Shown: piece by piece, positions 1,547-37,900 of the stretch
Layout: each line of letters starts with the position of its first letter
Position numbering within the stretch: position 1 is the first letter of the stretch
NCBI GenBank assembly: GCA_016936215.1
Contig: JAFGPL010000111.1
Location: forward strand, 12,459 to 76,458
From: Bacteroidales bacterium
GTDB taxonomy: Bacteria; Bacteroidota; Bacteroidia; Bacteroidales; UBA10428
Direction of reading: 5' to 3'
Length of the DNA stretch: 64,000 nucleotides
Program-made: the position numbers and the translations under genes
Notes under the pieces: model-generated
The model's database searches: none
What the model was told of the DNA's origin: nothing
The model's input: only the letters and a program-made list of their open reading frames with translations

Positions 1547-1617
1547 AAATTTAATTAATTTTATAATATTATAAATTGCACAAAAAAACTTTTAGTATCA
1601 GATAAAAACCTTTGGCT

Positions 1618-2949: not shown

Positions 2950-3002
2950 TAAAAATATTATACTATACTTTAAAACGTTAAATATCAAATAATCTAAACT
3001 CT

Positions 3003-3935: not shown

Positions 3936-3963
3936 TTATTAACGTTAACCCCGCAAAATAAAG

Positions 3964-5613: not shown

Positions 5614-5632
5614 TTATTAAAATTATATTGCA

Positions 5633-20157: not shown

Positions 20158-20631
20158 GTGAAAATTCAATTGATTAACACCGGAAAAACAACCGAAAAGC
20201 ATGTAAAAGAAGGAGTGGGATTATATGCAGAACGGTTGAAAAACTATGTTTTATTCGAGTATATTGACCTTCCTGAAATAAAGCATGCAAAAAGCCTTAC
20301 CTTCGATAAGCAAAAAGAACTGGAAGGTGAAATTATCCTTAAAAAAGTTTTAAAGACCGACTACGTTGTAGTGCTTGATGAAAAAGGACTTGAATACGGT
20401 TCAACCGAGTTTGCCGCTCATTTACAGAAAATCATGAACCGTGGAATAAAAAATATGGCATTTGTAACGGGCGGCCCGTTTGGATTTTCAAGGCCTGTTT
20501 ATGACCGTGCCGATGAACGGATTTCTTTATCAAGAATGACTTTCCCGCACCAGTTGGTACGCCTTATTTTTATTGAACAGCTATACAGGGCCTTTACAAT
20601 ACTCAATAATGAACCCTATCATCACATTTAA
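20158..20631 (+). CDS. rlmH: 23S rRNA (pseudouridine1915-N3)-methyltransferase
   Basis: SPOUT-type RlmH length (157 aa) and C-terminal motif (SLSRMTFPHQLVRLIFIEQLYRA...EPYH). GTG start. Confidence 0.85.
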   Translation: MKIQLINTGKTTEKHVKEGVGLYAERLKNYVLFEYIDLPEIKHAKSLTFDKQKELEGEIILKKVLKTDYVVVLDEKGLEYGSTEFAAHLQKIMNRGIKNMAFVTGGPFGFSRPVYDRADERISLSRMTFPHQLVRLIFIEQLYRAFTILNNEPYHHI

Positions 20632-20664
20632 CCTGTTGGGGAAACAATATAAACCAGGCATAAT

Positions 20665-23600: not shown

Positions 23601-24333
23601 CCGCATGGTACAGGAACTTCAGAAAAGCGCAGAACTACTGGCAAAGTCTGAACGTGAAAGTGCCTGGCGCGAAATGGCCAGACAAATTGCCCATGAGATA
23701 AAAAATCCGCTTACGCCAATGCGGCTTACCATTCAACACCTGCAGCGTGCCTGGAAAGATAAAAAAGAAAACTATGCCGAAATACATGATAAGGTTACCC
23801 AAACCTTGATCGAACAGATAGACAATCTTTCAAAGATTGCTTCGGAGTTTTCAAATTTTGCCCAAATGCCAAAGGCCAAAAACCAGAAGCTTGATATAGA
23901 AATTGTTATTAGAAATAACATCAGCCTGTTTTCAAATGCACCTGAAGTTACTATTGAATATCAACCTTTAATTGATGGCCCCGTGTATGTTTTTGCTGAT
24001 AAAGAACAACTTGCCAGGGTTTTTATTAATCTGTTTAAAAATGCCGTTCAGTCAGTTCCTGAGGACCGGGCATGTAAAATCCTGGTCACGCTGAACAAAG
24101 TCAATGGTAAAGTGCTTGCTAAAGTTGAAGACAATGGCAAGGGAATTCATGATGATGTAAAAGCCAAACTATTCACCCCCAATTTTACAACCAAATCAAG
24201 TGGTATGGGTTTAGGTCTTGCCATAACAAAGGATATTATAGAAAGTATCGGCGGCCGGATATACTTTGAAACATCCTGGGGAAAGGGGACTGTTTTCTAT
24301 ATTGAATTACCTGCATTTACGGGGGATAAATGA
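20665..24333 (+). CDS. Large polytopic sensor histidine kinase (HAMP-HisKA-HATPase output)
   Basis: C-terminal third: TM + HAMP (TKPLRLLQEKF...), H-box ARQIAHEIKNPLTPM, N-box FINLFKNAVQS, G-boxes DNGKGI / GMGLGL. The N-terminal ~900 aa has many TM helices and two apparent extracytoplasmic regions. No receiver domain and no adjacent response regulator. Confidence 0.85.
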   Translation: MNTPLKLFIAFISFILLAFFSGYIFSGITYGKKDVEKFQETLDEKFLLLDNTIETLFITGKIGPIEDFDKKGIIILIYKNNRLTNFTSNTILFPNYFDSLFYKSKLIFNNHAWYALKTYNLGQYQAVGLILIKKEFSYKNKFLENEFQSSFKMPPSVSIIENKTENSYEIRGNDGGYLFSLLINNELKYPWYKKNLAFFFYLTGIIVFLLFINALLKRIDNPVKKNYAIAGFTVFLAGFRLIQTVFRFPEGLYSNDLFSPVIFANSDLLPSLGDLLLNTVCIFYIIIKLNRDFFIHERFYQTKEQGRYSLNNLFIIALVFYFFYIRHIFSSLIINSNISFEVYKITSLNIYSFVGLIVIGMHFAALVMLIDKISEIGKKTIRMERIILSFSLILIASVLLLYLTGEMVDSYSVLFFFLLFSALVIIRFKTNYFYRYGILVLIVFISSVYIVYYIADTTIRKDRQNMKILVENLANEHDPIAELLLEEMSGELNSDSTLADMLFDMDVSYADLRSYLKNNYFKGFWGKYDFRFYDCRPSDSVVFTIPDEYRYHCYKYFDQYIGDRGMLLPNSKFYFIDNTNGRINYLGKITYLNKAREFPEISLFIELESTLVSEEFGYPELLLDSRLDVDSYLGEYSYAKYYQNNLITQSGEFHYSLARDIYGEQEKEYSFVRFDDFDHLIYNVNSENAIILSKPTINVYNSLISFSYIFVFYYVCLLITFALTKVTSRSRKIEFNFKNKIQFAVFSILLLSLLLIGGGTIYFSLQQYQKKNFDNITEKIQSVYTELDHKLAYEEVLSANWASDSYDNLDQLLQKFADVFYTDINLFDPSGDLIATSRPEIFDRGLTGTKMNPLALNNLMIEKKAEYVHRENIGKLHYLSAYVPFINANNKLLAYLNLPYFTREEELRQEITNLAVAIVNIYSLLILLTIAVAIFISDTITKPLRLLQEKFSQVKLLKNHELIDYSGSDEVASLVQEYNRMVQELQKSAELLAKSERESAWREMARQIAHEIKNPLTPMRLTIQHLQRAWKDKKENYAEIHDKVTQTLIEQIDNLSKIASEFSNFAQMPKAKNQKLDIEIVIRNNISLFSNAPEVTIEYQPLIDGPVYVFADKEQLARVFINLFKNAVQSVPEDRACKILVTLNKVNGKVLAKVEDNGKGIHDDVKAKLFTPNFTTKSSGMGLGLAITKDIIESIGGRIYFETSWGKGTVFYIELPAFTGDK

Positions 24334-24397: not shown

Positions 24398-26434
24398 TTA
24401 TCTAACGATAACCATTTTTTTCTCATCTACCTTTTTGTCATTCACAATTAAAAAATACGAATATATTCCTGCCGGCATATCCTGCAAATATAACTGGATA
24501 GACGAACTGCCTGAACCAACGATGCGGAATTCCCTGGTTTGGCCGTCAAACATGTTATAAACTGCAATGCTGGCATTTTCAGGTTCTTCTGCTAAATGGT
24601 AAAATACCGTGGTGATTCCATCTGAGGGATTGGGGCTGTTATACAAAAGATATGAGCTTTCCTGATCATCTGTTTGTAACCCTTCTCCAAAAGTATTACT
24701 GCTGTTAGCTGCATTGCTGCTTTTCAATACGGGGTCTGCTGGAAAACAGTCAAAAGTATTTTTAATATTGTAAGTTCCGTCACCCAGTTGTCCATAAATG
24801 TTCAAACCAGACCCGCAATACTTGTTATTGTAATCAAGAATTATGGTATGAGACCAACCAGCAGCCGCCATGGCACATTCCGGAATATTGGATATTTTTA
24901 CCGGGCTATATTGATCGGAGTTTGTACCATCACCTAATTGACCATATGTATTTGAGCCCCATCCCCAGAGCGTATTGTCAACCGCCGTAGCCATTGAAAA
25001 TTCATATCCTGCATCAATACTTTGCCAGGAATTATCTGAGCCTACTTCTACCGGCACATACGAAGGAGTAGTTGTTCCGTCACCCAGTTGGCCATAAGTA
25101 TTGTTCCCCCATACCCACAGGGTACCATCGGTTTTGAGTGCCATAGTATGGTAACCGCCACTTGAAGTCTGTTTCCAGTTATTGTCACCGGTTATTTTTA
25201 CAGGGGCTACCCTGCGTGATGTTGTACCGTCACCTAACTGACCATACCTGTTATCACCCCATGTCCAGAGTGTCCCATCGGTTTTTATGGCCAATGAATA
25301 AAGAAAACCGGCTTCAATTTCTTTCCAGTCTTTAGCATAACCGATCTTAACCGGTTGCAACTTGTTGAACATTGTACCATCGCCCAATTCGCCATACTTG
25401 TTATTACCCCATGCCCAAAGCGAACCATCGGTTTTTATGGCCAGGTTATGTGCAAAACCGGCAGATACTTTAGCCCAGTTTGTTGAACTGTCAACCAGTT
25501 CGGGTACAATTCTTTGTGTCGGGTCTCCCAATTCGCCCATACCTTGTGTACCCCATACCCATAAAGTACCGTCATTTTTTATCCCTGCTGCATGTGTATA
25601 ACCGGCAGAAACCTGTTTCCAGTCTGACTGGTCGCCTACCTGGACTGGTAAGTTTTTACCAATGATCGTTCCGTCGCCCAGTTGGCCATAAGAATTATCG
25701 CCCCATGCCCATAATGTACCATCTCCTTTTAAAAGCAAATTATAATCATTGCTGGTTGATAACCTGTCAAGATAACGAAGGGTCAAACGGGGATGCCTTG
25801 TTGAATCCAGGTGATCGCCAGAGCACAAAGCCATTCTGGTGTACCGCGATTCGCTCACCAGCCGTAACATAAATCCAAAACTGGACGCGGGATTTGCGAG
25901 CATATCCCTGACAAGGGAAGTTACATCAACATTTAAATAATCTTCGGTAAAGGTCTGGGATATTGGCAGTATTACCCGGTTTGTTGTGATAGAGGCCGGT
26001 TGAGTGTTATAAGTAACTGTTTTTTCATCCCAGTTCTCCGTTATACGTTCAAGGTAGCATGCATTTGACTTGTAACCGGTATTCTGCATCGTGATATAGT
26101 TCATATGCCGGTAATTGTCATTGGGTTGGGGCTGCATGGCATAAAAAGATAACCTGGCTTCCGCTATGTGGGCACCGGAAGGTATACCTGTCAGGTCAAA
26201 ATCTATAATGCTTCTGACATTGGTGCGGTATCCGCCGGCAGTCCATTCATCGGCAGAAAAAAGTGTATAACTGCCATAATTGGAGTTTGCCATATATTCC
26301 GAACCCGGTCTGAGGCTCAACAAAAGATAGGCATCTTTGCTGGGGCTCAGGGTTATTGATTGAGAAAAAATCAGCGGGTGCCATGATACGCAGAACATGA
26401 ACAATGCTATACTTAATATTATCTTGTTTTTCAT
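24398..26434 (-). CDS. Secreted RCC1-repeat beta-propeller protein with a DNRLRE-like N-terminal domain and a T9SS type-A C-terminal sorting domain
   Basis: Signal peptide MKNKIILSIALFMFCVSWHPLIFSQS (ATG at 26434; the track start at 26503 adds an implausible 23-aa extension). Seven W.WG.N.YGQLGDGT repeats. C-terminus ...YNSPNPSDGITTVFYHL...IYSYFLIVNDKKV..KMVIVR fits the type-A CTD pattern. Confidence 0.85.
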   Translation of the reverse strand: MKNKIILSIALFMFCVSWHPLIFSQSITLSPSKDAYLLLSLRPGSEYMANSNYGSYTLFSADEWTAGGYRTNVRSIIDFDLTGIPSGAHIAEARLSFYAMQPQPNDNYRHMNYITMQNTGYKSNACYLERITENWDEKTVTYNTQPASITTNRVILPISQTFTEDYLNVDVTSLVRDMLANPASSFGFMLRLVSESRYTRMALCSGDHLDSTRHPRLTLRYLDRLSTSNDYNLLLKGDGTLWAWGDNSYGQLGDGTIIGKNLPVQVGDQSDWKQVSAGYTHAAGIKNDGTLWVWGTQGMGELGDPTQRIVPELVDSSTNWAKVSAGFAHNLAIKTDGSLWAWGNNKYGELGDGTMFNKLQPVKIGYAKDWKEIEAGFLYSLAIKTDGTLWTWGDNRYGQLGDGTTSRRVAPVKITGDNNWKQTSSGGYHTMALKTDGTLWVWGNNTYGQLGDGTTTPSYVPVEVGSDNSWQSIDAGYEFSMATAVDNTLWGWGSNTYGQLGDGTNSDQYSPVKISNIPECAMAAAGWSHTIILDYNNKYCGSGLNIYGQLGDGTYNIKNTFDCFPADPVLKSSNAANSSNTFGEGLQTDDQESSYLLYNSPNPSDGITTVFYHLAEEPENASIAVYNMFDGQTREFRIVGSGSSSIQLYLQDMPAGIYSYFLIVNDKKVDEKKMVIVR
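24733..25741 (-). repeat. Seven tandem RCC1-like blades (protein-level repeat)
   Basis: GDNSYGQLGDGT / GTQGMGELGDPT / GNNKYGELGDGT / GDNRYGQLGDGT / GNNTYGQLGDGT / GSNTYGQLGDGT / GLNIYGQLGDGT, spaced about 50 aa apart. Coordinates approximate. Confidence 0.8.
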
Positions 26435-26503
26435 AAGTCTGAAATTTAGTTTTATGTTTTTATGTTCATGTTGGTTTAATCGGTAGCTAAAAAAATCTGT
26501 CAA

Positions 26504-27088
26504 TTAGTTATGTCTGTTTCCGTAGCCCTTTCTGTATGCCTGCCAGTCAATCATATGGACTTTTCCGTTTCTATCCCTGTGCCTGGGCTTACCATCCTTG
26601 CCAATAAATACATTGTCAAAGCTCCTGACATATTCTATTGAATCAAGACGGTTCATTGCCTTTACCCACTTTTCTCTTTCTGCAGCCGGGTCTATTAACT
26701 CACCCCTGTCGTTATGCTCGTATATTTTGTATTTCTGTCCCTTATAATCCTCACCGGTCATGATTACAAATGGCTCACTCAGCGACCTGTTTATCCTGAA
26801 ATACACCATATTGTCTTCAATTTTACAATCTGCAACTGTGTCCTTCAGAATATTTTTTGTAGAATATTTTTTAACCTTATCATTATATGTTATATATATA
26901 TGGTGGTATTTGCGTAACTCTTCAAGATTCAGCAGGCAGAACAATGATGGAATAGTATCCTCTTTTGATTTATGGGAGATTTTGTATTTATAGTAAGAAT
27001 TCTTCCATGGCAGTTTTTCCTGGGCATTCAATCCCGTTATAGAAGAAAGAAACCCTGATAAAAACAGTACGTATAAGATTTGTTTCAT
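26504..27088 (-). CDS. Secreted protein of unknown function
   Basis: Signal peptide MKQILYVLFLSGFLSSITGLNAQ. 194 aa, Lys/Tyr-rich. Same strand as the RCC1 gene and directly upstream of it. Confidence 0.55.
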   Translation of the reverse strand: MKQILYVLFLSGFLSSITGLNAQEKLPWKNSYYKYKISHKSKEDTIPSLFCLLNLEELRKYHHIYITYNDKVKKYSTKNILKDTVADCKIEDNMVYFRINRSLSEPFVIMTGEDYKGQKYKIYEHNDRGELIDPAAEREKWVKAMNRLDSIEYVRSFDNVFIGKDGKPRHRDRNGKVHMIDWQAYRKGYGNRHN

Positions 27089-27403: not shown

Positions 27404-27411
27404 TATATTTG
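27404..27411 (+). promoter_or_regulatory. Candidate Bacteroidota -7 promoter box (TATATTTG)
   Basis: Exact TAnnTTTG 28 nt upstream of the ATG at 27439. A TTTG at 27375-27378 could be the -33 element, although the spacing is long. Confidence 0.35.
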
Positions 27412-27438
27412 GTTTTTACAAACAGTTAACCTTTGCAA

Positions 27439-30400
27439 ATGCTAAAAAGAGTTATTGCAATATCAGTTGTAGTATACATATTTTGTAATTCTTTTTCCCA
27501 GGATACAATTACCGGAATTGTAAACCATTATTTGAAGGTTTTGGCTGTAGGTACCGATGAAGCCACCTATGAAGACAACGCGGAAATTTCTTTTTTTCAG
27601 GATGGTGATAAAGTTCTATTGATACAAATGACAGGTGTGGAACTCGACACTACCGATGGGACAGGAAACCGTGGTGAACCTGCCCGTGGGACAAAGATTT
27701 CGGATAAAAATACAGGCCGTTATGAAATTCTGCAGGTTGAAGAGGTAGATCTTTTTAATAAAAAGATCATTTTTACCTCAGACCTAATGAATACTTATGA
27801 CAACGGTGAAAAAATCCAACTTGTAAGCGTGCGCGAGTGTGAAAACAACGCCCTTATAAGCGGGACGGCTACTGCCAAAGACTGGGATGGAAATACCGGG
27901 GGGATTCTGATCATGGTTGTTTACGATACCCTTCGTTTCGAAGGCAATATTGATGTCTCTGACAAAGGTTTCAGAGGGGCAACCCCAGAGACGAATTACA
28001 CAGGAGGGTGCCGGCCGGCAAATGACACCGTGAATTTTCTTACAATTGAAACCAACAGGGCTGGTGATAAGGGAGAAGGCAATGTGAGCATAACTTTTCC
28101 ATACGCCAAAGGTTGTTTCTTTGCTTCATCAGGAGGAGGCGGCGGAAACGGCTTGTTTTCGGGAGGTGGAGGTGGCAGTAATTTTGGCGATGGCGGAAAT
28201 GGCGGAAGACAGGATACTTCATGTAGTTTCGTCCCCCCGATTGCCATGGGGGGCCTGAATGCAAACGACCTCTACAGTAATAATTGCATTACCATGGGCG
28301 GAGGGGGCGGCGCAGGGGTACAAAGTACCGTAACCACTGCTTCTCAAGGTGGAGACGGCGGTGGAATTGTGATCATTGCAGCCGGAGTAATTACCGGAAA
28401 TAACTATAACATAATTGCAGACGGAGAAAACATAGAAGGAACTTACAATGCCAGTGGTGGTGGCGGCGGCGGCGGCGGGACAGTGTTGCTCGATGCCACA
28501 ACATTCGCTGGCGCCCTCAATATCTCGGTCAAAGGAGGCAGGGGCGGAAGCACAGGGTCAAGTTGCACCGGCTCAGGTGGAGGCGGTGGAGGCGGTGTAT
28601 TCTGGTTTTCAGGCCAAAACAAGGAATACTTTGTTTGCGATACTTCCCGTGGCGCCCCGGGAGGCGTTTCTGGTTGCAGCACGTCAGGCACATACGGTCT
28701 TCACGGTAAAACATTTCCCTCCCTGATATTACCATTAAACGGTTTTCTTTTCAATGTAATCAGGGGAAAAGATACACTCTGTGCAGGGCAGCAACCCAAA
28801 ATAATTACAGGAAGCAACCCCAAGGGCGGGGATGGCAATTATACCTTTAAATGGGAACAGAGCACCGATCAGCTATCATGGACCAATGCCACAGGCACCG
28901 GGGCAAACCAGCGGGATTTTACACCTGCACCGCTATACAATACTACTTATTTCAGAAGAATTGTAAGTGCTGGCGGTACCACACCACAGGCAGATACAGT
29001 GAGCAAGGTGGTTGAAATATATATCTATCCTGCTATATCCAATAATGAAATTTTTGGTACCGATACCATTTGCTATAACCATACTGCATTGCCGGTAACA
29101 GGTGGCCAACCAGCCGGCGGCGATGGCTCCAATTATACCTATCAATGGCAGACAAGCCTTAACCTCACCGACTGGAACGATGCGGGCAGCCTGCTTACGG
29201 CCAATCAGCCTTACCTTCCGGGACAGCTAACTGCCACCAGGTATTTCAGAAGATTTATTACTTCAACAAAATACTGCGCTGATTTCAGCGACACCGTAAC
29301 CGTAACCGTGTTGCCTTCAATTTCAAATAATTTTTTTAAACCCATAACAGACACCATTATCTGCCAGGGTCTGACGCCGGGGCTTTTACGTGCTGAACAA
29401 CCCATAAACGGCGATGGTTATTATACATACCTGTGGCAGAAAAAAGATAATTCAGGATGGGAAGATATTACTTCAAGCAATATCATGGAATATACCGCAG
29501 GCCCCCTTGCAAACAATACCCAATACAGGAGGATTGTTTTCTCAGGCAATGATAAAGCCTGTATTGATACATCAGATATAAAAAATATTACTGTATTGGA
29601 AGCCATTGCCAATAATTCCATATCAACCGATTCTTCAAGATACTGTCACGGAGATGTACCCCGTATGTTCAACGGCTCAGTCCCTTCGGGGGGAGACGGA
29701 CCGGGATCATACACATATAAATGGATCATAAACGAAGGAGCAGGCTGGAATGAAATTTCAGATGCCACAGATATAAGTCATTCGCATACAGCTCTTTTGC
29801 AGAACTCCGAATTTAAACGTATTGTTATTTCCGGTGTGTATGGTGCATGCAAAGATACTACCCCCCCACTCCAAATAACTGTAATTCCAGCTATTGTAAA
29901 TGATTTAGGACTTGATGCCCAGTCTATCTGCGAAAATAATGCCCCGTTGCCTTTCTCACCTCCAGCAGCGACAGGTGGCAATGGCTCATATACTTATCAA
30001 TGGCTGATCAGGCCGGAAAGCCAGGTTTCATGGTCGGATGCACCCGGTGTGAACAACCTGCATGATTATAATTCTCCTGCGCTTATTGACTCTGCAATTT
30101 TCGCCAGAAGAGTGGTTTCGGATATCTGTGCCGATACCAGCGAACCTGTTGAAGTGTATGTTTTTAAAAAAATTAAAAACAACTTCATTGCCGAAAATGC
30201 TTTAAAATATGCATGTTACAATACGCCGGAACTGCTTACCGGTTCCGTGCCCGTTGACGGCAAACACAATGACTACAAATATCTCTGGCAGATGGCCAAT
30301 ACTGCAGATACCTGGACAGATGCCACGGGAAATACTTCAAATAACTTACAGAATTTTGAAACTGAAAACCTTACTACCCCAAAATATTTCCGCAGAATTG

Positions 30401-31524
30401 TAATTTCATCAGCACAGGGCGCAGAATGCATTGATACCAGCAATTATGTACAGGTACTTATAAACCAGTTACCGGCCGGTTCTATCATTCCCTCGCAGGA
30501 TACAACATGCGAAGGCGGAACTGTTACTTTAAAATATACTGTTTCAGGCAATCATGGGCCCTGGAATATAACCTTTGGTGACGAAGCTGTAATCGGATCA
30601 GATATAACAACTTCAGAAGGAACAGACTCGGCAATATTTGTTTTTAACACTTCTCAAAATGTCCGTATACTGTCTGTTGAAGATGACAGCGGATGTTTTG
30701 CCGACCTCACGGCAGCTTCAGAAATGGTAAATGTAAAGGTTTATGATTTTCCCGAAGCCAATGCCGGCGACGATGCTGAAATATGCAACACCCAATATAC
30801 CCTTAATGCAACGAAAAGCTTACCCGGCACCCGGGGGGTATGGCAATCTTCATTGGGTGAATTTAATGATCCCTCGCTTGAAAATGCTACATTAACCATA
30901 AATCCTTTTATTTCAGGTAAGTTGAACGGATGGGTAAAATGGACCGAAACGAACTGGAGGTGCGCCGATTCAGACAGTGCTTACCTCATATTCTATGAAC
31001 AACCAACCGAAGCTGAAGCGGGTGAAAACAAAATACTCGATTATGTATTTCAAACAACGCTGGAGGCAGGACCGCTTATGTTTGGAAGCGGAAAATGGAG
31101 CCTTTCATCAGGAAATGCGGTATTTGAAAACGATACTATCCACAATACTTTCATCAGCGGGCTCGACTGGGATAATGTTCTTAAATGGACAGTTACAAAC
31201 GGAAACTGTCCTTCGGTTTCAGACAGCGTAAATATTTTTGTAAACAACCTGAAACTTCCCAATGGGTTTGCCCCTGACAATGGCTCGATGAATGTATTTA
31301 AGGTGGAAATTGAAAATGCCGAGAAGATTGAACTGATAGTTTTCAACCGTTTAGGCCAGATAGTGTTTGAAGAACCCAATTACACCGAAGGGAATTTTTG
31401 GGACGGCACCAATCAGAATAAAACAGAACTGCCCGAAGGCACCTATTTCTATATTTTAAAGGTCAAAATAGCCGGAAAAGGTGAAATGCCCCCATATAAA
31501 AGTTACATTGAACTGCTGAGATAA
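27439..31524 (+). CDS. Giant cell-surface protein with a T9SS type-B (gliding motility-associated) C-terminal domain
   Basis: Signal peptide MLKRVIAISVVVYIFCNSFSQ. Poly-glycine module, then six ~96-aa repeats. C-terminus LPNGFAPDNGSMNVFKV...LIVFNRLGQIVFE...WDGTNQ...PEGTYFYILKV...YIELLR matches the type-B CTD pattern (PN.F.P..D..N..F...I.NRWG..VF...W.G...G...P.GTY.Y). The track start at 27433 is TTG. Confidence 0.85.
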   Translation: MLKRVIAISVVVYIFCNSFSQDTITGIVNHYLKVLAVGTDEATYEDNAEISFFQDGDKVLLIQMTGVELDTTDGTGNRGEPARGTKISDKNTGRYEILQVEEVDLFNKKIIFTSDLMNTYDNGEKIQLVSVRECENNALISGTATAKDWDGNTGGILIMVVYDTLRFEGNIDVSDKGFRGATPETNYTGGCRPANDTVNFLTIETNRAGDKGEGNVSITFPYAKGCFFASSGGGGGNGLFSGGGGGSNFGDGGNGGRQDTSCSFVPPIAMGGLNANDLYSNNCITMGGGGGAGVQSTVTTASQGGDGGGIVIIAAGVITGNNYNIIADGENIEGTYNASGGGGGGGGTVLLDATTFAGALNISVKGGRGGSTGSSCTGSGGGGGGGVFWFSGQNKEYFVCDTSRGAPGGVSGCSTSGTYGLHGKTFPSLILPLNGFLFNVIRGKDTLCAGQQPKIITGSNPKGGDGNYTFKWEQSTDQLSWTNATGTGANQRDFTPAPLYNTTYFRRIVSAGGTTPQADTVSKVVEIYIYPAISNNEIFGTDTICYNHTALPVTGGQPAGGDGSNYTYQWQTSLNLTDWNDAGSLLTANQPYLPGQLTATRYFRRFITSTKYCADFSDTVTVTVLPSISNNFFKPITDTIICQGLTPGLLRAEQPINGDGYYTYLWQKKDNSGWEDITSSNIMEYTAGPLANNTQYRRIVFSGNDKACIDTSDIKNITVLEAIANNSISTDSSRYCHGDVPRMFNGSVPSGGDGPGSYTYKWIINEGAGWNEISDATDISHSHTALLQNSEFKRIVISGVYGACKDTTPPLQITVIPAIVNDLGLDAQSICENNAPLPFSPPAATGGNGSYTYQWLIRPESQVSWSDAPGVNNLHDYNSPALIDSAIFARRVVSDICADTSEPVEVYVFKKIKNNFIAENALKYACYNTPELLTGSVPVDGKHNDYKYLWQMANTADTWTDATGNTSNNLQNFETENLTTPKYFRRIVISSAQGAECIDTSNYVQVLINQLPAGSIIPSQDTTCEGGTVTLKYTVSGNHGPWNITFGDEAVIGSDITTSEGTDSAIFVFNTSQNVRILSVEDDSGCFADLTAASEMVNVKVYDFPEANAGDDAEICNTQYTLNATKSLPGTRGVWQSSLGEFNDPSLENATLTINPFISGKLNGWVKWTETNWRCADSDSAYLIFYEQPTEAEAGENKILDYVFQTTLEAGPLMFGSGKWSLSSGNAVFENDTIHNTFISGLDWDNVLKWTVTNGNCPSVSDSVNIFVNNLKLPNGFAPDNGSMNVFKVEIENAEKIELIVFNRLGQIVFEEPNYTEGNFWDGTNQNKTELPEGTYFYILKVKIAGKGEMPPYKSYIELLR
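28127..28600 (+). other. Poly-glycine module within the type-B cargo protein
   Basis: SSGGGGGNGLFSGGGGGSNFGDGGNGG, MGGGGGAG, QGGDGGGIVIIAAG, SGGGGGGGGTVLLDA, KGGRGGSTG, GSGGGGGGGVFWF: Gly runs alternating with short hydrophobic strands. Includes (GGT)2(GGC)5GGG at 28456-28479. Confidence 0.7.
28780..30507 (+). repeat. Six tandem ~96-aa Cys-bracketed repeats (protein-level, diverged at DNA level)
   Basis: Each unit reads C....P..(L/I)....P.GGDG.Y.Y.WQ.....W.D......(Y/F).P..L...T.(Y/F)RR.V.S...C.D.S..V.(V/I).V. Units start at Cys codons about 288 nt apart. Confidence 0.75.
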
Positions 31525-31525
31525 G

Positions 31526-32443
31526 ATGCGTTATAAAACATACATATTCACGGTACTTTTCCTCATCTTCACGATAAACGGCAGATGCCAGGACCGCGCT
31601 ATACTTAACAGCCAGTACCAATTCAACGGGTTGGTGATCAATCCGGCGTATGCCGGTCGCAACGAGGTTTTTACCTTTTTATTTTCGCACCGTAACCAAT
31701 GGATGGGCTTTGAAGGCGCCCCTAAAGCATATACCCTTAGCCTGCACTGGCCGATGAAAAACATTAAAACTGCCCTGGGCATCCTGGGCTACCAGGAAGA
31801 GATCGGATCAAGAAAATATTCGAGTGTATACTTTAATTATGCCCACAGGATAACACTCGGAAACGGAAGATTATCTATGGGGCTCAGGGGAGGAATAGCG
31901 TCGGGCAGATTTGATATGATTGACCTGGGAAATGGAGAATTTGTATTTGATGATAAACTGCAGAATTTCCTGCTCCCGAATTTTGGCTTAGGTGTTTTTT
32001 ACTACACCCAAAACCTTTTTGCAGGAATTTCAATACCCCTGCTCCTGGGTTATAAAGTTACGGATGAACCGGCCGGGTTACAAGTCTACCATGACTTTAG
32101 CAATTACGGCTATTGTCTCACAGCCGGATATTCTTTTCCGATAAACAATACTTTAAGACTACAGCCTTCTACCTTAATCAGGTATCAAAAAAGCTATTCT
32201 TTCACCCCGGATTTAAACATCAATCTTATTTATAAAGATAATTTTATGGGGGGATTGTCTTACAGGCCGAACGAAGCTTTTATCTTTTTATTTAACTGGA
32301 AGTTTAATTACCAGTCAAGGCTTGGGGTATCTTACGACTTCGGATTGGGTGATTTAAGCAATTATCATAACGGTTCGCTTGAATTTACTTTTCAATATGA
32401 ATTTGGATATAAAATCAGGGTGTCAGATCCGGGAAACTTTTAA
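31526..32443 (+). CDS. PorP/SprF-family T9SS membrane protein (second paralog, cognate to the type-B cargo)
   Basis: SQYQFNGLVINPAYAG motif and barrel-like sequence. The start is 1 nt after the cargo gene stop. Type-B CTD genes are typically followed by a PorP/SprF-like gene. Confidence 0.85.
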   Translation: MRYKTYIFTVLFLIFTINGRCQDRAILNSQYQFNGLVINPAYAGRNEVFTFLFSHRNQWMGFEGAPKAYTLSLHWPMKNIKTALGILGYQEEIGSRKYSSVYFNYAHRITLGNGRLSMGLRGGIASGRFDMIDLGNGEFVFDDKLQNFLLPNFGLGVFYYTQNLFAGISIPLLLGYKVTDEPAGLQVYHDFSNYGYCLTAGYSFPINNTLRLQPSTLIRYQKSYSFTPDLNINLIYKDNFMGGLSYRPNEAFIFLFNWKFNYQSRLGVSYDFGLGDLSNYHNGSLEFTFQYEFGYKIRVSDPGNF

Positions 32444-32446
32444 TAG

Positions 32447-33880
32447 ATGGGGAAATTAATTTGTCATATAATCACATTTATAATTTTTTATGCTGTTTCG
32501 GTGCAATCCATTGCGCAAAAACATTTTTCTGCCCAGAAACTTTCGTTCAACAACCCAATGAGCGATGAGTATGCCCCCATGTTTTTCCAAAATGACATTG
32601 TTTTTGTTTCGAACCGGAAAAATGATGTTTTAATTACCCATACCGATATGAGCGACAGACCGTTGAACAATATTTATCTTGTAAAGCAAAGAAAACCGGG
32701 CCGGTTCGGCCCTGCACAACTTTTTTCAAGAGATATTTCAACACGTTACAACGAAGGCCCTGTTTCATTCAGTAACGATGGCAAAACAATGTATTTTTCG
32801 CGAAACATTGATGTTTCAAAAAGTTTCGGAAACAGCCTGAGGGGAGATTCCACCCTGGGTCTTTTCACGGCCGAACTTGTTAATGAAAACTGGGTAAACA
32901 TCAAACCTGTCCAAAGATTTAACAGGCCAAATTACAATCACAGTTTTCCCTTTATTACCGATGATGGAAAACAACTATTTTTCGCGTCAGATGACCCCCG
33001 TGGTTTTGGCGGTTATGATATTTACGTCTCTGAACTGGAAGGTGGTGCATGGGGACCGGCACAAAACCTGGGCAATAAAATCAATACCAAAGAAAATGAA
33101 GTCTTTCCGTTTTGCCATGCTGGTGGCAGATTGTATTTTTCATCACGCGGACATGATAATAATACCGATCTTGATATTTTTTATTCAGAACTGATTGACG
33201 GTGAATGGCAGGAACCTGTAAAAATGCCTGCCCCTTTCAATTCCGATAATGATGATTTCAGTTTTATCATTAATTCAACCATGGATACAGGCTTTTTTGC
33301 GTCAGACCGTTCACAATCGCGCGACATCTTTATGTTTAGTTCAACCCTTCCGGTTTTCACTAATTGTCCCCGGCAGCAGGAAAACGATTACTGTTATATA
33401 TTTTACGAACAGGGAAGCATAGACCTTGACACCACTTCCTTCAGGTACGAATGGGATTTGGGCGACGGTACCAGGATACGCGACCTCGAAGCCAATCACT
33501 GTTATAAAACACCAGGCCTGTACCTTATAAAACTAAATGTAATTGATACGCTCACAGGCGAAGTCTATTTCAGCCAGGCAGAATATGAACATATGGTAGA
33601 AGAGATCGAACAACCATATATTACCATGCCCGACACGGTTTCCGCGACAGAGGTAGTTGCCTTCGGCGCAGGCAAAACCCATCTTTTAAATTTCGAGATT
33701 GATAATTTTTACTGGGATTTTGGTGACGGCACGAGGGCTTCCGGAATTAACGTCAATCATGTCTTCACAAAACCCGGAACCTATATGGTTCAGCTTGGCG
33801 TTTTAAGTACTACAAACAACGAAAACCAGGAACCACAACAAAGATGTGTTACCCGTCCATTGGTTGTAATAAGGGACTAG
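32447..33880 (+). CDS. Secreted PD40 (TolB-like) repeat protein with two C-terminal PKD-like domains
   Basis: Signal peptide ...SVQSIAQ. Repeated PD40-like units (MYFSRNID, LFFASDDPRGFGGYDIYVSE, LYFSSRGH..DLDIFYSE, GFFASDRS..RDIFMF). Two PKD signatures (YEWDLGDGT, FYWDFGDGT...HVFTKPGTYMVQLGV). No OmpA-like C-terminal domain is visible. Confidence 0.75.
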   Translation: MGKLICHIITFIIFYAVSVQSIAQKHFSAQKLSFNNPMSDEYAPMFFQNDIVFVSNRKNDVLITHTDMSDRPLNNIYLVKQRKPGRFGPAQLFSRDISTRYNEGPVSFSNDGKTMYFSRNIDVSKSFGNSLRGDSTLGLFTAELVNENWVNIKPVQRFNRPNYNHSFPFITDDGKQLFFASDDPRGFGGYDIYVSELEGGAWGPAQNLGNKINTKENEVFPFCHAGGRLYFSSRGHDNNTDLDIFYSELIDGEWQEPVKMPAPFNSDNDDFSFIINSTMDTGFFASDRSQSRDIFMFSSTLPVFTNCPRQQENDYCYIFYEQGSIDLDTTSFRYEWDLGDGTRIRDLEANHCYKTPGLYLIKLNVIDTLTGEVYFSQAEYEHMVEEIEQPYITMPDTVSATEVVAFGAGKTHLLNFEIDNFYWDFGDGTRASGINVNHVFTKPGTYMVQLGVLSTTNNENQEPQQRCVTRPLVVIRD

Positions 33881-33970: not shown

Positions 33971-34939
33971 ATGAAGCAGATTTTATATTGCATCACAGCA
34001 TTGTTCATTCTAATCCCACTCGCATACAGTCAGCCTGTGCCGGCAGGCGATGAAAATATTCCCTACCTGATGACCTTTGGCCCAAAGGCAGAAAAATCAT
34101 GGGGCGATGATGATTTTTCCCAGACATTTTTTTTCAGGATACCCCGGGACTTTAAAGAGCCCTTATATATCAAGGTTTACGACCCGGATGCCGGCGGGGC
34201 CCTTGATGAACTCAACGGTATTTGGGATACAAAAACAACCTATTCTGTTTTTGGCGGAAAAGAGTGTTATACTCACAAAGACGCACAGGAAACACAGCCT
34301 GTAGGCAATTACAAAAGCGGCAACCTTCTGGCGACAAAAACCTTTGGTGAAGATGTCCGGTACGACAAAGGCTGGTATACTTTCGGCCCCTTTAATCCAA
34401 CCGAAGGGGAACTGGTTACCAAATTTGACGGTTATATTTTCAAAATCGTTGCCGACGGGATAACCGGCGACGATGGCAATTTATACAGGTTTTACCTGAG
34501 CACTAGCTATAGCGAAAATAAACCTATTGAAGGGGCTAATGCTTTTACCTACGAATATTCCTTCAGGATGCATGATGACCCTAACGAAGTGTCTCATATT
34601 TATCCTTATGTAGATGATAAAACCATCAGTGTAAAACTATCAAACTTCGACTGGGACAACGACGGTTTCATCAGAACCGTATCTGTAGCCAGACAGGGTC
34701 AGATGAGCAAGGTGTCTAACGAAGACGAGTGGATAGAAGATGAGTTTAAAATCATGGACGAAGAACACAATAAATCTCTTGATATTCAGTTCATTAAAAA
34801 AAGAAATCCGCCTGTCAGAAATAACAATGTCGTGGTAAATGTACGAAACCAATACGGGGAACTGCTTCCATTCTTTGTTATTCCAATTGGAGGGGTCCCG
34901 AAATATAAATATTCCATTGGCACAAAAAAACCCAATTAA
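33971..34939 (+). CDS. Secreted protein of unknown function
   Basis: Signal peptide MKQILYCITALFILIPLAYSQ (ATG at 33971; the track start at 33965 is TTG). 322 aa, acidic. No family recognised. Ends 21 nt before the sensor-phosphatase gene. Confidence 0.6.
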   Translation: MKQILYCITALFILIPLAYSQPVPAGDENIPYLMTFGPKAEKSWGDDDFSQTFFFRIPRDFKEPLYIKVYDPDAGGALDELNGIWDTKTTYSVFGGKECYTHKDAQETQPVGNYKSGNLLATKTFGEDVRYDKGWYTFGPFNPTEGELVTKFDGYIFKIVADGITGDDGNLYRFYLSTSYSENKPIEGANAFTYEYSFRMHDDPNEVSHIYPYVDDKTISVKLSNFDWDNDGFIRTVSVARQGQMSKVSNEDEWIEDEFKIMDEEHNKSLDIQFIKKRNPPVRNNNVVVNVRNQYGELLPFFVIPIGGVPKYKYSIGTKKPN

Positions 34940-34960: not shown

Positions 34961-37900
34961 ATGAACAGATTATTAGCCGCGAAACTACTAACCCTATGCC
35001 TTGCACTTTATTTTTTAAGTCCTTACGATTCGTTTAACCAAAGTTACAAATTTAAAAAATACGGGATACAACAGGGTATATGCCATCCTTTTGTATATAC
35101 CATCAACCAGGATAAAAACGGTTTTATCTGGATAGGGACCGGAGAAGGGTTATGCAGGTTTGATGGCTTCGATTTCAGCACCGAGACGGTTTCAGACATT
35201 GTTGAACGCGATGTGGCCAATATTAGTTTTAAAGACACTAAAGGCAACCTGTGGTTTGGATTTCACAATGGTGCAATAATTATTTACGACGGAAAGAAAT
35301 TTACACCGGCTAAAACAATTGAGCCCATCAAAGGCACCATCACAGGTTTTGCTGAAGATACCGAAGGTAATATCCTGGTTTCGGTTATGACCGGGGGTAT
35401 ACTTGTTATAAAAGACTTTCAGGAAACAAAAAGAATCAGCAGTGAATTGAATAACAATTTGTTAACATTCATTTGTCTGAAAAAAAACCTTTTACTCTCA
35501 GGTTCGCAGGAAGGTTTGAGTATATATTCATACCAGCCTGGTGGTTCAGATTTAAAATTGTTGACAGATATTAAAGAACTTGAATATATTAAAATACAAA
35601 ACATTAAGCCTTCAATTTCAGATGATGGATATTGGATAGGCACAGAAGATGAAGGCTTGTACTTTTTACAGACTGACGATAATGGATCATATTCACTCAG
35701 GAAAAAAGGAGAAGAATTTAATCTCGGCACCCTTAATGTTCAATCAATCTATCAAGACGGGGAAAAGAATTTATGGGTCAGCACGCTTCGGTCGGGGGTA
35801 TATAAATTTCTTTACAACGAGTCTGAAAACAGTTTTTCCGATGTAATTAACTATACCAAAGAAAATGGACTTACAGGAAATTCGATAAAAGAAGTATTTG
35901 AAGACAGGGAAGGCAATATCTGGATAGCCACATATGGCGACGGCCTGGCCATATTTCTGAGCGACGCCCTTACATTCTATGGCTACCAGGTAAATGGATT
36001 TGACAATAATATTACAGCAGTTTGTGCCCAGGACAGCATTGTATGGCTTGGAGGGATGGGAAACCTGTTAAAAACCAATATTACCAAAGAAAACAAACCA
36101 TTAAAATTCAATACAGCACATGGCCTGCCTAATGATCTTATAACTGCATTGTTTTACGATAAAAAGGGTACATTATGGATTGGTACCGAAAAAAACGGCA
36201 TTTACAGGATGAATGTTACAACCGGTAAAATTTCAAAATTTGTTTATCCGGCCAATTCGCTGGGACTTTCAGTTAAATCAATTATCGGGGAAGGAAATTC
36301 GGTATACGCCGCCACCAAAGAAGGTATTTACTACTTTAACCCCGACAACGATGAAAAAGTACACTATAGCACTAACAACGGGCTGCCCCACAATGTTATA
36401 GAACATGTTTTTCTTGATAGCGAAAACAACCTTTTATTTGCAACCCAGGCAAATGGTATTTATGCTATTGATGCCTTCGGCGAAATTCAGGAACGTTTTA
36501 TCACCGGTGACTTTGAGCTCGATTTTAATTCCATTGCACAGGATAAGAACGGAAATATCTGGGCATCCACCTACGGATTCGGTGTTTATTTTTTCGGTAA
36601 AGACACTTTTATAAACATTACTGCCGAAGATGGGCTGAAATCGGATTTTTGTTACAGTATTATAGCTTCAGGCGATGGAAACGTTTGGGTAGGCCACAGG
36701 CTTGGAATTACCAAAATAAATATTAACAGTTTTTCAAAATACATTTACGATGTTGAAAAAGGGATAACCGGCGATTGCAATTACAACAGCGTTTGTAGGG
36801 ACAGAAACGGGAAACTCTTTTTTGGAACCACCGAAGGGCTTATCTGTTATGACCCCTCGAAAGATAAAAGCGCTTCCATTCCGCCAAATACAAATATCCT
36901 GAGGGTGCTGATCAACGATCAGCCTGTTGATTTCAAAAACGACATACTGCTTCCTTACTCAAAATATAAGATCAGGATTGAATTTGCCGGGCTCTATTAC
37001 CGCGATCCCGAAAGGGTAAATTACCGTTATAAGCTCGAAGGGTTTGACCCAGAGTGGTCAGATGTTTCCAACCTAAATTACGTGGTATACCCTCGCATAA
37101 CAGACGGAAAATATACTTTTTACCTGAAATCGTTTATCGAGAGCGAAACTGATATTAACACCCCGGTAATTATTAAATTACGTATCAAACTTCCATTTTA
37201 TAAAACCTGGTGGTTTATATTATTATCACTTTTACTACTGGTAGTAATCGTTCTGCTTATCATAAAATTCAGGGAGAGAAAGCAAAAGCAACTTCAGGAA
37301 TACCTTGAAAAAAGCCTTGCTGAAAGAACCAGGGAAGTTGTTGAACAGAAAGAGGAAATCGAGATCAAGAACAGGGACATTACCGACAGCATAAATTATG
37401 CACAACGGATACAGGCGAGTATTTTGCCCCCAATCAAGCGTTTGCAACAGAATTTTGCCGGTGCTTTTGTTTTCTATCAACCACGGGACATCGTAAGCGG
37501 TGATTTTTACTGGTACGATAAAATTTCAGATTCCAAATTTATAATTGTATGCGCCGATTCAACAGGGCATGGTGTTCCGGGGGCTTTCATGTCAATGATA
37601 GGCACTACGCTTATCAAAGATATCTGTTTCAGGGAAGCCACAGGTTCTCCGTCTGAAATACTCAGAAGCCTGGACCAAGAGCTAAGAAACACCCTCAACC
37701 AGAACCTCGAAGCCGAAAAAGCAAATGACGGTATGGATATTATCGTCTGTGAGATTGACCTTAAGTCTTATTATATAAGATATGCTTCTGCCATGCGCCC
37801 GATGATTGTTTACAAAAACGGGGAAGAAATCTATGTGAAAGGCAGCAGGAGCTCTGTTGGCGGACATTATGACAAATCAGAAAAAAATTTCCAGGACGAA

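Follow-up and report, generated by a model that had tools for sequence, protein, structure and literature searches.

A type-B T9SS cargo cassette of Bacteroidales with a PorE-like protein lacking the OmpA domain and a conserved association with a putative sensor module

[quoted passage not shown] The set Fjoh_3952/Fjoh_3951/Fjoh_3950 (cargo/SprF-like/PorE-like) is an example, and the same three roles are filled by PG1035/PorP/PorE in P. gingivalis. PorE of P. gingivalis is a lipoprotein composed of a TPR domain, a WD40 propeller, a CRD domain and an OmpA_C domain; PorP binding depends on its WD40 domain, and D576 and N584, the peptidoglycan residues of its OmpA domain, are essential (PMC12773672).

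In a MAG of an uncultured Bacteroidales bacterium, we analysed a stretch of 64,000 nt (the window) that contains a cassette with the same three roles and the gene order of the F. johnsoniae set. Its genes A, B and C lie on the + strand, are separated by 1 and 3 nt, and match their profiles strongly on long ORFs, which excludes chance. They form a type-B T9SS cassette of cargo, cognate SprF-like protein and PorE-like protein (Table 1). Compared to the F. johnsoniae and P. gingivalis sets, whose PorE-like proteins have been described as anchors to peptidoglycan, C has no OmpA_C domain, two further conserved genes (D and E) come after the cassette, and the passenger of A differs. The preliminary description of this DNA had recognised three tightly packed genes for a type-B cargo, a private SprF-like protein and a PD40 protein, and the ORFs and their spacing, the profile searches and the F. 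johnsoniae literature (PMC9143113, PMC12618676) bear this out. Two of its boundaries needed correction. Position 27404, given as the start, is not a start codon and belongs to a -7 promoter box, the ATG of A being at 27439. The conserved unit is also larger than the three genes described, as D and E come after the short C and their presence goes along with an OmpA module that is lost or decayed.

Table 1. Features of the cassette and its surroundings, in window coordinates.
Feature	Position	Strand	Basis
Sensor histidine kinase, 1222 aa, a neighbour conserved upstream of A among relatives	20665..24333	+	gene neighbourhoods
Bacteroidetes-type -7 promoter box TATATTTG	27404..27411	+	perfect match to TAnnTTTG; 28 nt before A start codon
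Gene A, T9SS type-B cargo, 1361 aa	27439..31524 (ORF 27433/27439..31524)	+	ORF, Pfam, NCBIfam, phmmer, AlphaFold2
AgmC_N-like domain (small beta-barrel, then glycine-rich solenoid), A residues 26-402	27514..28644	+	NF047640, 172.5 bits
Six ~95-aa Cys-containing repeats, GGDGxYxYxW motif, A residues ~445-1010	28771..30468	+	motif scan
Ig-like region akin to GhpA repeats, A residues ~1011-1271	30469..31251	+	phmmer vs PDB 9flp
Type-B T9SS CTD, A residues 1272-1358	31252..31512	+	PF13585, TIGR04131, GhpA C-terminus alignment
Gene B, PorP/SprF-family outer-membrane protein, 305 aa	31526..32443	+	PF11751, TIGR03519
Gene C, periplasmic PorE-like adaptor, 477 aa	32447..33880	+	Pfam, NCBIfam, relatives
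PorE-type PD40 beta-propeller, C residues 25-302	32519..33352	+	NF052230, CHU_0125_OmpA
Tandem PKD domains, C residues 319-461	33401..33829	+	PKD_4, 91.2 bits, 2 stretches
Gene D, secreted protein without known family, 322 aa	33971..34939	+	ORF, homologue search
Gene E, sensor, 1057 aa	34961..38134	+	Pfam Reg_prop 127.9, Y_Y_Y 39.2, SpoIIE 71 bits

Protein A consists of a Sec signal peptide (hydrophobic at residues 1-19, followed by Gln), an N-domain of beta-barrel and Gly-rich solenoid, six repeats, Ig-like domains and a type-B CTD, and its gene is directly adjoined by the cognate PorP/SprF-like gene. The score of the N-domain against NCBIfam NF047640 (gliding_AgmC_N) is below the equivalog cut-off of 275 bits; the N-domain is a homologue of AgmC_N, but A itself is no AgmC equivalog. 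Domains of this type are common among Bacteroidota cargos with either type A or type B CTDs. An AlphaFold2 model of the N-domain (pLDDT 88.9, pTM 0.90) had weak Foldseek matches to beta-helix tailspikes and lyases (TM ~0.15). The repeat motif occurs at residues 463, 560, (~655), 751, 846 and 941, and the repeats match no Pfam family. The Ig-like region and the CTD are related to GhpA, the T9SS-secreted grappling hook of Aureispira (PDB 9flp; phmmer E 5.4e-16 across several stretches). GhpA has Ig-like repeats and a type-B-like CTD in common with A, but is a hook-forming protein of 5898 aa, whereas A is much shorter and has another N-terminal domain, and the match is confined to the repeats and the CTD. 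The C-terminus had been called a textbook type-B CTD. It is of type B, passing Pfam PF13585 (CHU_C, which models the type-B T9SS signal) with 66.5 bits (cut-off 27), and 'textbook' is slightly generous given a real but sub-threshold match to NCBIfam TIGR04131 (27.1 bits, cut-off 35, E 3.3e-6). The passenger had been described as not recognisably related to SprB, RemA or ChiA; the absence of SprB repeats (PF13573), a lectin domain and GH18 in Pfam searches (E <= 0.1) agrees with this, but A can be recognised by its AgmC_N and GhpA relationships. Between loci, the cargo is variable (455-1705 aa, differing passengers), in contrast to the constant B, C, D and E.

Protein B scores 195.6 bits against PF11751 (PorP_SprF, cut-off 22.3) and 206 bits against TIGR03519 (cut-off 90.55). 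It is only 27% identical to the core PorP encoded at 572..1546, which heads a porP-porK-porL-porM-porN operon with GldK/L/M/N equivalogs after PorP in the window, and it is thus a distinct paralog, as had been proposed. B is presumed to be the cognate shuttle and anchor of A.

Protein C begins with a signal peptide, which is followed by a beta-propeller and two PKD domains. Its residues 25-293 match positions 145-409 of the 648 positions of the PorE profile NF052230 (148.8 bits), and the propeller also matches CHU_0125_OmpA at positions 151-415; the whole protein likewise scores 148.8 bits against NF052230, far under the family cut-off of 600. The propeller is homologous to the PorP-binding propeller of P. 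gingivalis PorE (PMC12773672), but C carries the two PKD domains in place of the CRD and is without TPR, OmpA_C and lipobox. No TPR or CarboxypepD_reg (CRD) domain was found in C, while both are present in the canonical relative P0432; because the NF052230 match opens only at profile position 145 and no TPR hit was obtained, C does not have the N-terminal TPR part of PorE. A lipobox-like motif is absent from all 38 C family members, and Gln24, which follows the signal peptide, does not vary; the PorE homologues of F. johnsoniae are likewise not lipoproteins (PMC7192894). The PKD pair matches that of ColH (E 1.8e-22) and contains the motifs YEWDLGDGT and FYWDFGDGT. No OmpA domain was detected in C with Pfam and NCBIfam (E <= 0.1) or with an HMM made from OmpA tails taken from its closest long relatives (E <= 1), and the latter HMM had no match in any of 80 genome loci. 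The propeller (residues 25-302) and PKD pair (residues 319-472) fill the chain, which stops 7 residues past the second PKD domain, and thus leave no room for an OmpA domain. The PD40 repeats, both PKD motifs and the missing OmpA domain had been reported correctly; that C is also without the TPR and CRD domains and without a lipoprotein signal had been overlooked.

Gene D has no Pfam, NCBIfam or PDB match and 4360 homologues, all of them unnamed, and shows the highest conservation within the block (60-90% identity between loci). Its predicted structure is poor (pLDDT 56), so that any role assigned to D is a guess. A hydropathy scan of E indicates a signal/TM segment at residues 4-22 and a TM segment at 744-774, with the Reg_prop/Y_Y_Y domain periplasmic and the SpoIIE/PP2C phosphatase cytoplasmic; the C-terminus is SiaA-like (177.9 bits). 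The periplasmic domain architecture is the one known from sugar-sensing regulators, comparable to Reg_prop/Y_Y_Y of the Bacteroides hybrid two-component systems. In locus L170, the protein at the position of E keeps the same periplasmic sensor with a histidine kinase as output, which points to the periplasmic part of E as the conserved input.

The five genes are collinear in nearly all of 79 genome loci, with median gaps of 0 nt between A and B (68 loci), 3 nt between B and C, about 98 nt between C and D, and 11 nt between D and E. The motif TAnnTTTG, the Bacteroidetes -7 promoter consensus, precedes A at a distance of 15-69 nt in 43 of 55 orthologous loci (5.1 expected from shuffles). In the C-D spacer, a promoter-like box is weak or absent overall (16 of 74 spacers, 7.6 expected) and no terminator-like site was found. 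Joint transcription of A to E from the promoter at 27404 is probable, and the 16 spacers with a promoter-like box mean that D and E may be separately transcribed in some genomes. Housekeeping genes keep their order in this lineage too (rlmH upstream, a pseudouridine synthase gene and a phosphoglucomutase-family (PGM/PMM) gene downstream), and part of the synteny of the block is therefore simple vertical inheritance. The histidine kinase gene immediately precedes A in 56 genome loci as well as in the distant loci L108, L114, L123 and L130, and in the window is parted from A by a two-gene insertion (24398..27088); its membership in the system is uncertain.

The short form of C is a large, length-conserved family. 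The best 120 of its 920 homologues are all 404-490 aa long and have PD40 and PKD but no OmpA domains, and in 78 species-level genome loci C has a median length of 477 aa and a maximum of 520 aa. Column identity is 55-70% in every domain and 36 residues are invariant. The nearest relatives of C are products of the third genes in type-B cassettes and are about 717 aa long, with the order propeller, PKD, PKD, linker and OmpA. These PKD-type long forms (~700-730 aa, e.g. P0376 in locus L081) share 35-40% identity with C over the propeller and both PKD domains and, like C, are encoded after the SprF-like gene and have no lipobox. C differs in stopping right past the second PKD domain and corresponds to the long architecture minus its last ~240 residues; the linker and OmpA domain with the D..N..R peptidoglycan triad are absent in C and all of its 78 orthologues. 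Association with D and E goes with a decayed or absent OmpA domain in C. D adjoins the short C in all 19 metagenome loci and in about 76 of 78 genome loci (L068 and L076 have a short C without D), and it adjoins C of intermediate form in 7 of 7 loci. It is next to a long C with a strong, intact OmpA domain in none of 12 loci, and next to a canonical TPR-type PorE-like gene in none of 29. Among the seven intermediates, the three whose OmpA-like tails were aligned (L105, L116, L106) no longer have the NRR motif or any of the three peptidoglycan-contact positions. The NJ tree behind the argument for repeated loss carries no support values.

Our main reading, to which we assign a probability of roughly 0.5, is that the cassette combines cargo, shuttle and an adaptor C that does not anchor to peptidoglycan and is functionally tied to the sensor module D-E. 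By analogy with the described systems, A would be exported by Sec, pass the T9SS translocon by means of its type-B CTD, and be passed on to B, its private outer-membrane protein of the PorP/SprF type, which would retain it on the cell surface. C would be a periplasmic member of a PKD-bearing PorE-like branch, and its propeller would dock on the periplasmic face of B, as suggested by the binding of PorP by the PorE WD40 domain. Having probably lost the linker and the peptidoglycan-binding OmpA_C module, C would no longer pin the A-B-C complex to the cell wall. The cassette is co-inherited with D and E, the latter predicted to be a sensor of the inner membrane whose Reg_prop/Y_Y_Y domain faces the periplasm and whose PP2C phosphatase faces the cytoplasm. 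By inference, the C/B complex would have found new partners, in physical contact with it, in D and the periplasmic domain of E. The surface protein would thereby be linked to a signalling output and not to peptidoglycan.

It is possible, if clearly less probable, that D and E are an independent regulatory pair (e.g. a periplasmic glycan sensor) that is merely co-located or co-regulated, with C docking on B but touching neither D nor E, and the loss of OmpA being unrelated lineage drift. The presumably sugar-sensing architecture of E would fit such a role, as would the weak likeness of the N-domain of A to polysaccharide-active beta-helices, and the C-D spacer (~90-100 nt) is the longest gap of a block whose housekeeping neighbours are syntenic as well. 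In locus L101, D and E lack their own C and lie directly behind a second cargo-SprF pair, and the OmpA domain of the C nearby is intact, so that D and E do not strictly depend on an anchorless C. Independence is, however, at odds with the way in which adjacency of D tracks the OmpA state of C across short, intermediate and long forms, with the retention of C-D-E as a unit where A and B are absent (L086), and with the abutting or overlapping C and D genes of L086, L107, L111 and L113.

An anchorless C might also let A, B and C travel with the gliding machinery in the manner of SprB-SprF, with no structural role for D and E, which we consider improbable. The mobile type-B cargos of F. johnsoniae have no PorE-like partner and the static ones do (PMC9143113, PMC12618676); SprB and SprF resemble A and B in that a cargo ending in a type-B CTD is paired with its cognate SprF-like protein and is not tethered to peptidoglycan, and gldK/L/M/N homologues are present in the window. 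But where those mobile cargos are without any PorE-like gene, here one is strictly retained and well conserved. The SprB-SprF system also differs in the SprB repeats, which A does not have, and in sprC/sprD-like genes, which are absent here. Gliding in these Bacteroidales is a presumption only, and D and E would be left unexplained.

The preliminary description held that the OmpA C-terminus is replaced by the two PKD domains, which would then serve as a substitute anchor with a new attachment logic of their own. The first PKD domain is the best-conserved part of C (mean column identity 0.70, compared to 0.61 for the propeller) and thus probably binds something specific. The comparison with third genes of other type-B cassettes that the description had suggested contradicts a swap: among the best 150 of 26,704 representative propeller relatives, 31 have the propeller, both PKD domains, a ~140-aa linker and OmpA, and the Pfam-checked P0376, third gene behind a cargo and a SprF-like gene, has this architecture. 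This makes the PKD pair an original feature of the PorE-like subfamily to which C belongs; the tail is missing and not exchanged, and a substitute anchor is very unlikely. That C is a functionless, decaying PorE-like remnant, because it is without the domain that is essential in P. gingivalis PorE (PMC12773672), can hardly be maintained against the conservation of its length, its columns in all domains and its ends in hundreds of homologues.

An extension of our reading of an adaptor tied to D-E would be a trans-envelope relay, in which the state of A (load, ligand or contact) reaches D and the periplasmic Reg_prop/Y_Y_Y domain of E by way of B and C, with the cytoplasmic PP2C phosphatase of E, or the histidine kinase in L170, as output. 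We regard the complete relay as rather unlikely. If true, it would be a surface-sensing pathway made of type IX secretion parts, and PorE-like proteins would gain a role besides cell-wall anchoring.

Three plus-strand open reading frames separated by gaps of 1 and 3 nt lie where the preliminary description had placed them and with near certainty form a type-B T9SS cassette of a cargo protein (A), a PorP/SprF paralog (B) and a third protein with PD40 and PKD domains (C). The cassette start given as 27404 needs correction, as this is not the start codon of A, whose ATG is at 27439. Residues 1272–1358 of A match Pfam CHU_C (PF13585, the type-B T9SS signal) with 66.5 bits at a cut-off of 27, which upholds the type-B CTD assigned earlier; the match to TIGR04131 (NCBIfam) is sub-threshold (27.1 bits vs. 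35). B is a full-length PorP/SprF protein (Pfam 195.6 bits; TIGR03519 206 bits) and, as proposed, distinct from the PorP at 572..1546 (27% identity), which heads the porP-gldK-gldL-gldM-gldN operon. Pfam recognized PD40 repeats and two PKD domains in C, which has both PKD motifs quoted for it previously, and neither Pfam nor NCBIfam detected OmpA in C at E <= 0.1, in line with the initial reading. A dedicated HMM made from the OmpA tails of the nearest long relatives did not match C either, and the propeller (residues 25–302) and the PKD pair (residues 319–472) account for the whole chain. No OmpA-like open reading frame was found elsewhere in the 64-kb window with the E. coli OmpA C-terminal domain as probe; a canonical PorE of this organism, if present, lies outside the 64 kb.

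Coordinates of the cassette, its parts and neighbouring features in the window
Feature	Coordinates	Strand	Description
Core T9SS operon porP-porK/gldK-porL/gldL-porM/gldM-porN/gldN	572..6496		NCBIfam equivalog-level matches, PorP at family level
rlmH and sensor kinase	20158..24333		SPOUT methyltransferase and 1222-aa HAMP/HisKA/HATPase sensor kinase; N-terminal ~900 aa of the kinase uncharacterised
Two-gene insertion between kinase and A	24398..27088	-	Absent from all related loci
Gene A	27433/27439..31524	+	Type-B cargo, 1361 aa counted from the ATG at 27439
Six ~95-aa repeats in A	28771..30468		Residues ~445–1010; two Cys each and GGDGxYxYxW motif
Gene B	31526..32443	+	PorP/SprF paralog, 305 aa
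Gene C	32447..33880	+	PD40/PKD third protein, 477 aa
Gene D	33971..34939	+	322-aa protein with signal peptide
Gene E	34961..38134	+	Sensor with PP2C phosphatase

At position 27404 begins TATATTTG, a perfect match to the Bacteroidetes -7 promoter box, the consensus of which we take to be TAnnTTTG. In 43 of 55 related loci the same box precedes the A orthologue by 15–69 nt, compared to 5.1 expected from shuffles. A scan for sigma-70 promoters and terminators gave no more sites than shuffled sequence. Median gaps are 0 nt (A-B), 3 nt (B-C), about 98 nt (C-D) and 11 nt (D-E). The C-D spacer in the window holds neither a promoter box nor a terminator-like site and, as an Rfam search of the window returned nothing, no known RNA element. 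All five genes from A to E may be transcribed from the one promoter at 27404. The signal peptides of A, B, C and D all have Gln directly after them, as is usual for signal peptidase I sites in Bacteroidetes.

Residues 25–293 of C match the NCBIfam family PorE (NF052230, profile positions 145–409 of 648), and the CHU_0125 OmpA-like family is matched over the equivalent stretch. PorE has the architecture TPR-WD40-CRD-OmpA_C (PMC7192894; PMC12773672). The NF052230 match corresponds exactly to the PorE beta-propeller and places C in a PorE-like superfamily, but most of the features that define PorE, namely the TPR, CRD and OmpA_C domains and the lipobox, are absent from C. None of 38 members of the C family has a lipobox, and Gln invariably follows their signal peptide. 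The absent lipobox is not unusual, because the PorE homologues of F. johnsoniae are likewise not lipoproteins (PMC7192894).

Searching 1.84 billion representative proteins with the C propeller alone yielded 26,704 relatives at E <= 1e-3 (1,875 at E <= 1e-30), the best 150 of which were classed by PKD and OmpA probes, with ten verified by Pfam. Thirty-one of these 150 are long forms consisting of the propeller, two PKD domains, ~140 aa and OmpA (about 700–730 aa; P0376, Pfam OmpA 62.9 bits), about 20 are intermediate forms with a shorter tail (610–680 aa; weak OmpA match in some), and about 45 are short forms that stop directly after the second PKD domain (450–500 aa), as C does. A further 29 have OmpA and no PKD; in a classification limited to proteins with one complete propeller, 26 of them split into canonical TPR-propeller-CRD-OmpA proteins (n = 17) and propeller-OmpA proteins without TPR or PKD (n = 9). 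The gene for P0376 sits directly behind those for a large cargo and a PorP_SprF protein, and the PKD pair is therefore native to a large "third-gene" PorE-like branch. Hence, contrary to what had been suggested, the PKD pair does not replace OmpA, since relatives that keep OmpA also carry both PKD domains; what distinguishes C is the absence of the last ~240 residues (linker and OmpA).

The short form constitutes a family of its own. C has 920 homologues at E <= 1e-5, and the best 120 of these are all 404–490 aa long with PD40 and PKD and without OmpA. A genome scan identified 79 true loci in species-representative genomes, all from uncultured Bacteroidales or Bacteroidota MAGs; no cultured host with D and a short C was among these 79 hits, a scan bounded by its search pattern. 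Across 78 of these loci, the median length of the C open reading frame is 477 aa and the longest reaches 520 aa, and no OmpA-tail match was present in any frame of the 80 loci. Column identity is 0.61 in the propeller, 0.70 in the first and 0.55 in the second PKD domain. This conservation of the short form rules out that C is a pseudogene. Deposited records call the proteins only "PKD domain-containing" or "hypothetical". The window comes from an uncultured Bacteroidales MAG, and the 100%-identical deposited C is named [quoted passage not shown].

Six probes from the window (the N-terminal domain of A, the CTD of A, B, C, D and E) were collinear by tblastn in nearly every one of 80 loci with enough flank. 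D has no Pfam (E <= 10), NCBIfam or PDB sequence or profile relative, and among the best 120 listed of its 4360 homologues none carries a Pfam domain or is informatively named. It is the best conserved gene of the block (60–90% identity where C has 40–55%), with a mean column identity of 77% and about 110 invariant positions, including Asp-rich motifs such as WGDDDFSQ and NFDWDxDG. Its AlphaFold2 model, made from a shallow alignment of 36 sequences that are all >70% identical, reached a pLDDT of 56.3, too poor for a fold search. E has a hydrophobic N-terminus (residues 4–22), a large Reg_prop/Y_Y_Y region predicted to be periplasmic, one transmembrane segment (residues 744–774) and, in the cytoplasm, a SpoIIE/PP2C phosphatase whose C-terminus is SiaA-like; no STAS-type substrate gene was found near E in the window. 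At the position of E in the related locus L170 (5334..8564), the encoded protein matches E residues 27–810 (sensor and transmembrane segment) and ends in HisKA and HATPase_c, not in PP2C. The sensor is thus retained with a kinase output, so that the periplasmic input is the conserved element and the output is swappable.

The presence of D and E follows the state of the OmpA module. When short and long forms were aligned together, no stretch was sufficiently conserved for a metagenome search, and the scan was instead seeded with long forms only, giving 80 loci of all classes. These were classified with HMMs (D, OmpA tail, linker, propeller-PKD region) and with phmmer (B, E, A). D is immediately downstream of a short C (472–497 aa, >=1 kb downstream) in 19 of 19 metagenome loci, with E next wherever room allows; an apparent exception, L109, is a coordinate artefact. 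D adjoins none of the 12 long C genes with strong OmpA and none of the 29 canonical TPR-type loci, and it adjoins intermediate C (631–686 aa) in all four scan loci, or seven of seven when the intermediate representatives P0371, P0412 and P0423, which have D and an E-like gene, are included. In a tail alignment, the canonical P0432 and the long form of L101 retain the peptidoglycan-contact pattern HTDxxGSxxxNxxLSxxRA...NRRxEF, while in the D-E-linked intermediate tails L105, L116 and L106 the contacts are replaced at all three positions (D by T/M/S, N by K/T/T, R by W) and the NRR motif is absent. The equivalent residues Asp576 and Asn584 of P. gingivalis PorE are needed for function (PMC12773672). 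A neighbour-joining tree of the propeller-PKD region, which has no support values and is indicative only, placed the D-negative long forms in a clade of their own. In its D-positive group, short forms are interspersed with intermediate ones and occur in three or more subclades. On the simplest reading, peptidoglycan binding became dispensable in D-E cassettes; decay and deletion of the tail followed, perhaps on more than one occasion. L068 and L076 are the sole genome loci in which a short C is not followed by D; both have an E-like gene upstream on the opposite strand in place of D.

Individual loci indicate which parts belong together. L086 (4872..13596; JGI 3300050571, 324-kb contig) encodes C, D and E with gaps of 1 and 12 nt and no cargo or SprF-like gene upstream; C travels with D-E. 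In divergent orientation to these genes lie those for an ECF sigma factor, a glycine-rich protein of 93 aa and a solitary GldM paralog. In one MAG (GCA_016938235.1; L169 and L055) the cargo-SprF-C-D-E cassette is present as two paralogs, of which one has a short C and the other a 652-aa intermediate C that keeps an OmpA-like tail. Tandem cassettes in L101 (1081..17729) consist of a cargo, an SprF-like gene and a long C with intact OmpA, followed by a second cargo (a 1350-aa LamG/DUF2341 protein), SprF, D and E without a second C. D-E can accordingly follow an SprF-like gene directly, which weakens a strict rule that C needs D-E and strengthens the link of D-E to type-B cassettes. The cargos of D-E-linked cassettes are 455 to 1705 aa long and have unrelated passengers (LamG/DUF2341, Ig_7, AgmC_N-like), all ending in CHU_C; these cassettes vary in their passenger and are constant in B-C-D-E.

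The passenger of A was described as unlike SprB, RemA and ChiA, and indeed no SprB repeat, RemA-type or ChiA-type domain was found in it by Pfam. Residues 26–402 match NCBIfam gliding_AgmC_N below its cut-off (172.5 bits vs. 275), a domain type common in 600–800 aa Bacteroidota cargos with type A or type B CTDs; "AgmC" was absent from the best-ranked papers of our literature search. An AlphaFold2 model of this N-terminal domain (55 sequences; pLDDT 88.9, pTM 0.90) consists of a small beta-barrel and, after it, a glycine-rich solenoid, with only weak likeness in Foldseek against the PDB to right-handed beta-helix tailspikes, capsule depolymerases and pectate lyases (E about 2e-4, TM about 0.15), from which we draw no inference about catalysis. 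The six repeats match no Pfam family and may represent a type of Ig-like repeat not yet described in T9SS cargos. The subsequent Ig-like region and the CTD match those of GhpA (9flp, E 5.4e-16), a T9SS-secreted grappling-hook protein of Aureispira.

Type-B cargos require a cognate PorP/SprF-like shuttle and stay bound to it (PMC9143113, PMC12618676). PorE binds PorP, probably via its WD40 propeller, and peptidoglycan via OmpA_C (PMC12773672, PMC7192894), and in the current model a PorE-like partner pins static type-B cargo to peptidoglycan, while partnerless cargo is mobile (PMC9143113, PMC12618676). Sequence comparison establishes which domains are present, that OmpA is absent, that the family is conserved and that it is associated with D-E. 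We propose that A would be secreted and then held by B, onto which the propeller of C may dock from the periplasmic side. C would be unable to bind peptidoglycan, and D and the periplasmic domain of E would be its functional, possibly physical, partners, such that the cassette would be wired to a phosphatase (or kinase) output rather than to the wall. We give this complete mechanism, an anchorless C cassette tied to D-E, a probability of about 0.5; functional coupling of the cassette to D-E is likely, and physical contact of C with D and E is a possibility.

Alternatively, D-E could be an independent glycan-type sensor that is merely co-located with the cassette, which we consider rather unlikely. 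It is favoured by the flanking genes, housekeeping genes among them, which are syntenic too. In 56 related genome loci, as well as in distant loci from metagenomes, A is directly preceded by rlmH and the histidine kinase, the latter a possible member of the system. Downstream, the lineage has a pseudouridine synthase and a gene of the phosphoglucomutase family (PGM/PMM), so that the order of A to E partly reflects vertical descent. The two genes of the insertion that separates kinase and A in the window code for a 194-aa protein without family and for an RCC1-repeat/CBM96 protein of 701 aa, whose type-A T9SS tail is weak (Por_Secre_tail, 20.1 bits). It is improbable that the complex is simply anchorless and hence mobile. 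That the PKD pair serves as a new anchor is more doubtful still, as the pair already occurs in relatives that retain OmpA. The constant length and column identity of the short form make a decaying remnant scarcely credible.

While this type of cassette is known, we found no description of an OmpA-less PorE-like third gene, its abundance, the graded decay of the peptidoglycan-contact triad or the D-E partners: our literature search yielded no paper on PorE-like proteins without OmpA or on the D family, and no T9SS link for Reg_prop/SpoIIE sensors. A large natural family keeps the PorE-like propeller and PKD with the peptidoglycan-binding module mutated or deleted, and OmpA loss is confined to cassettes followed by D and the E sensor, save L068 and L076. 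The finding bears directly on the role of PorE-like proteins for type-B cargo, with an inferred mechanism and with members that so far all come from uncultured organisms. The unannotated D family gains a first functional context, and PorE-like proteins may be adaptors with interchangeable partners and not wall anchors alone.
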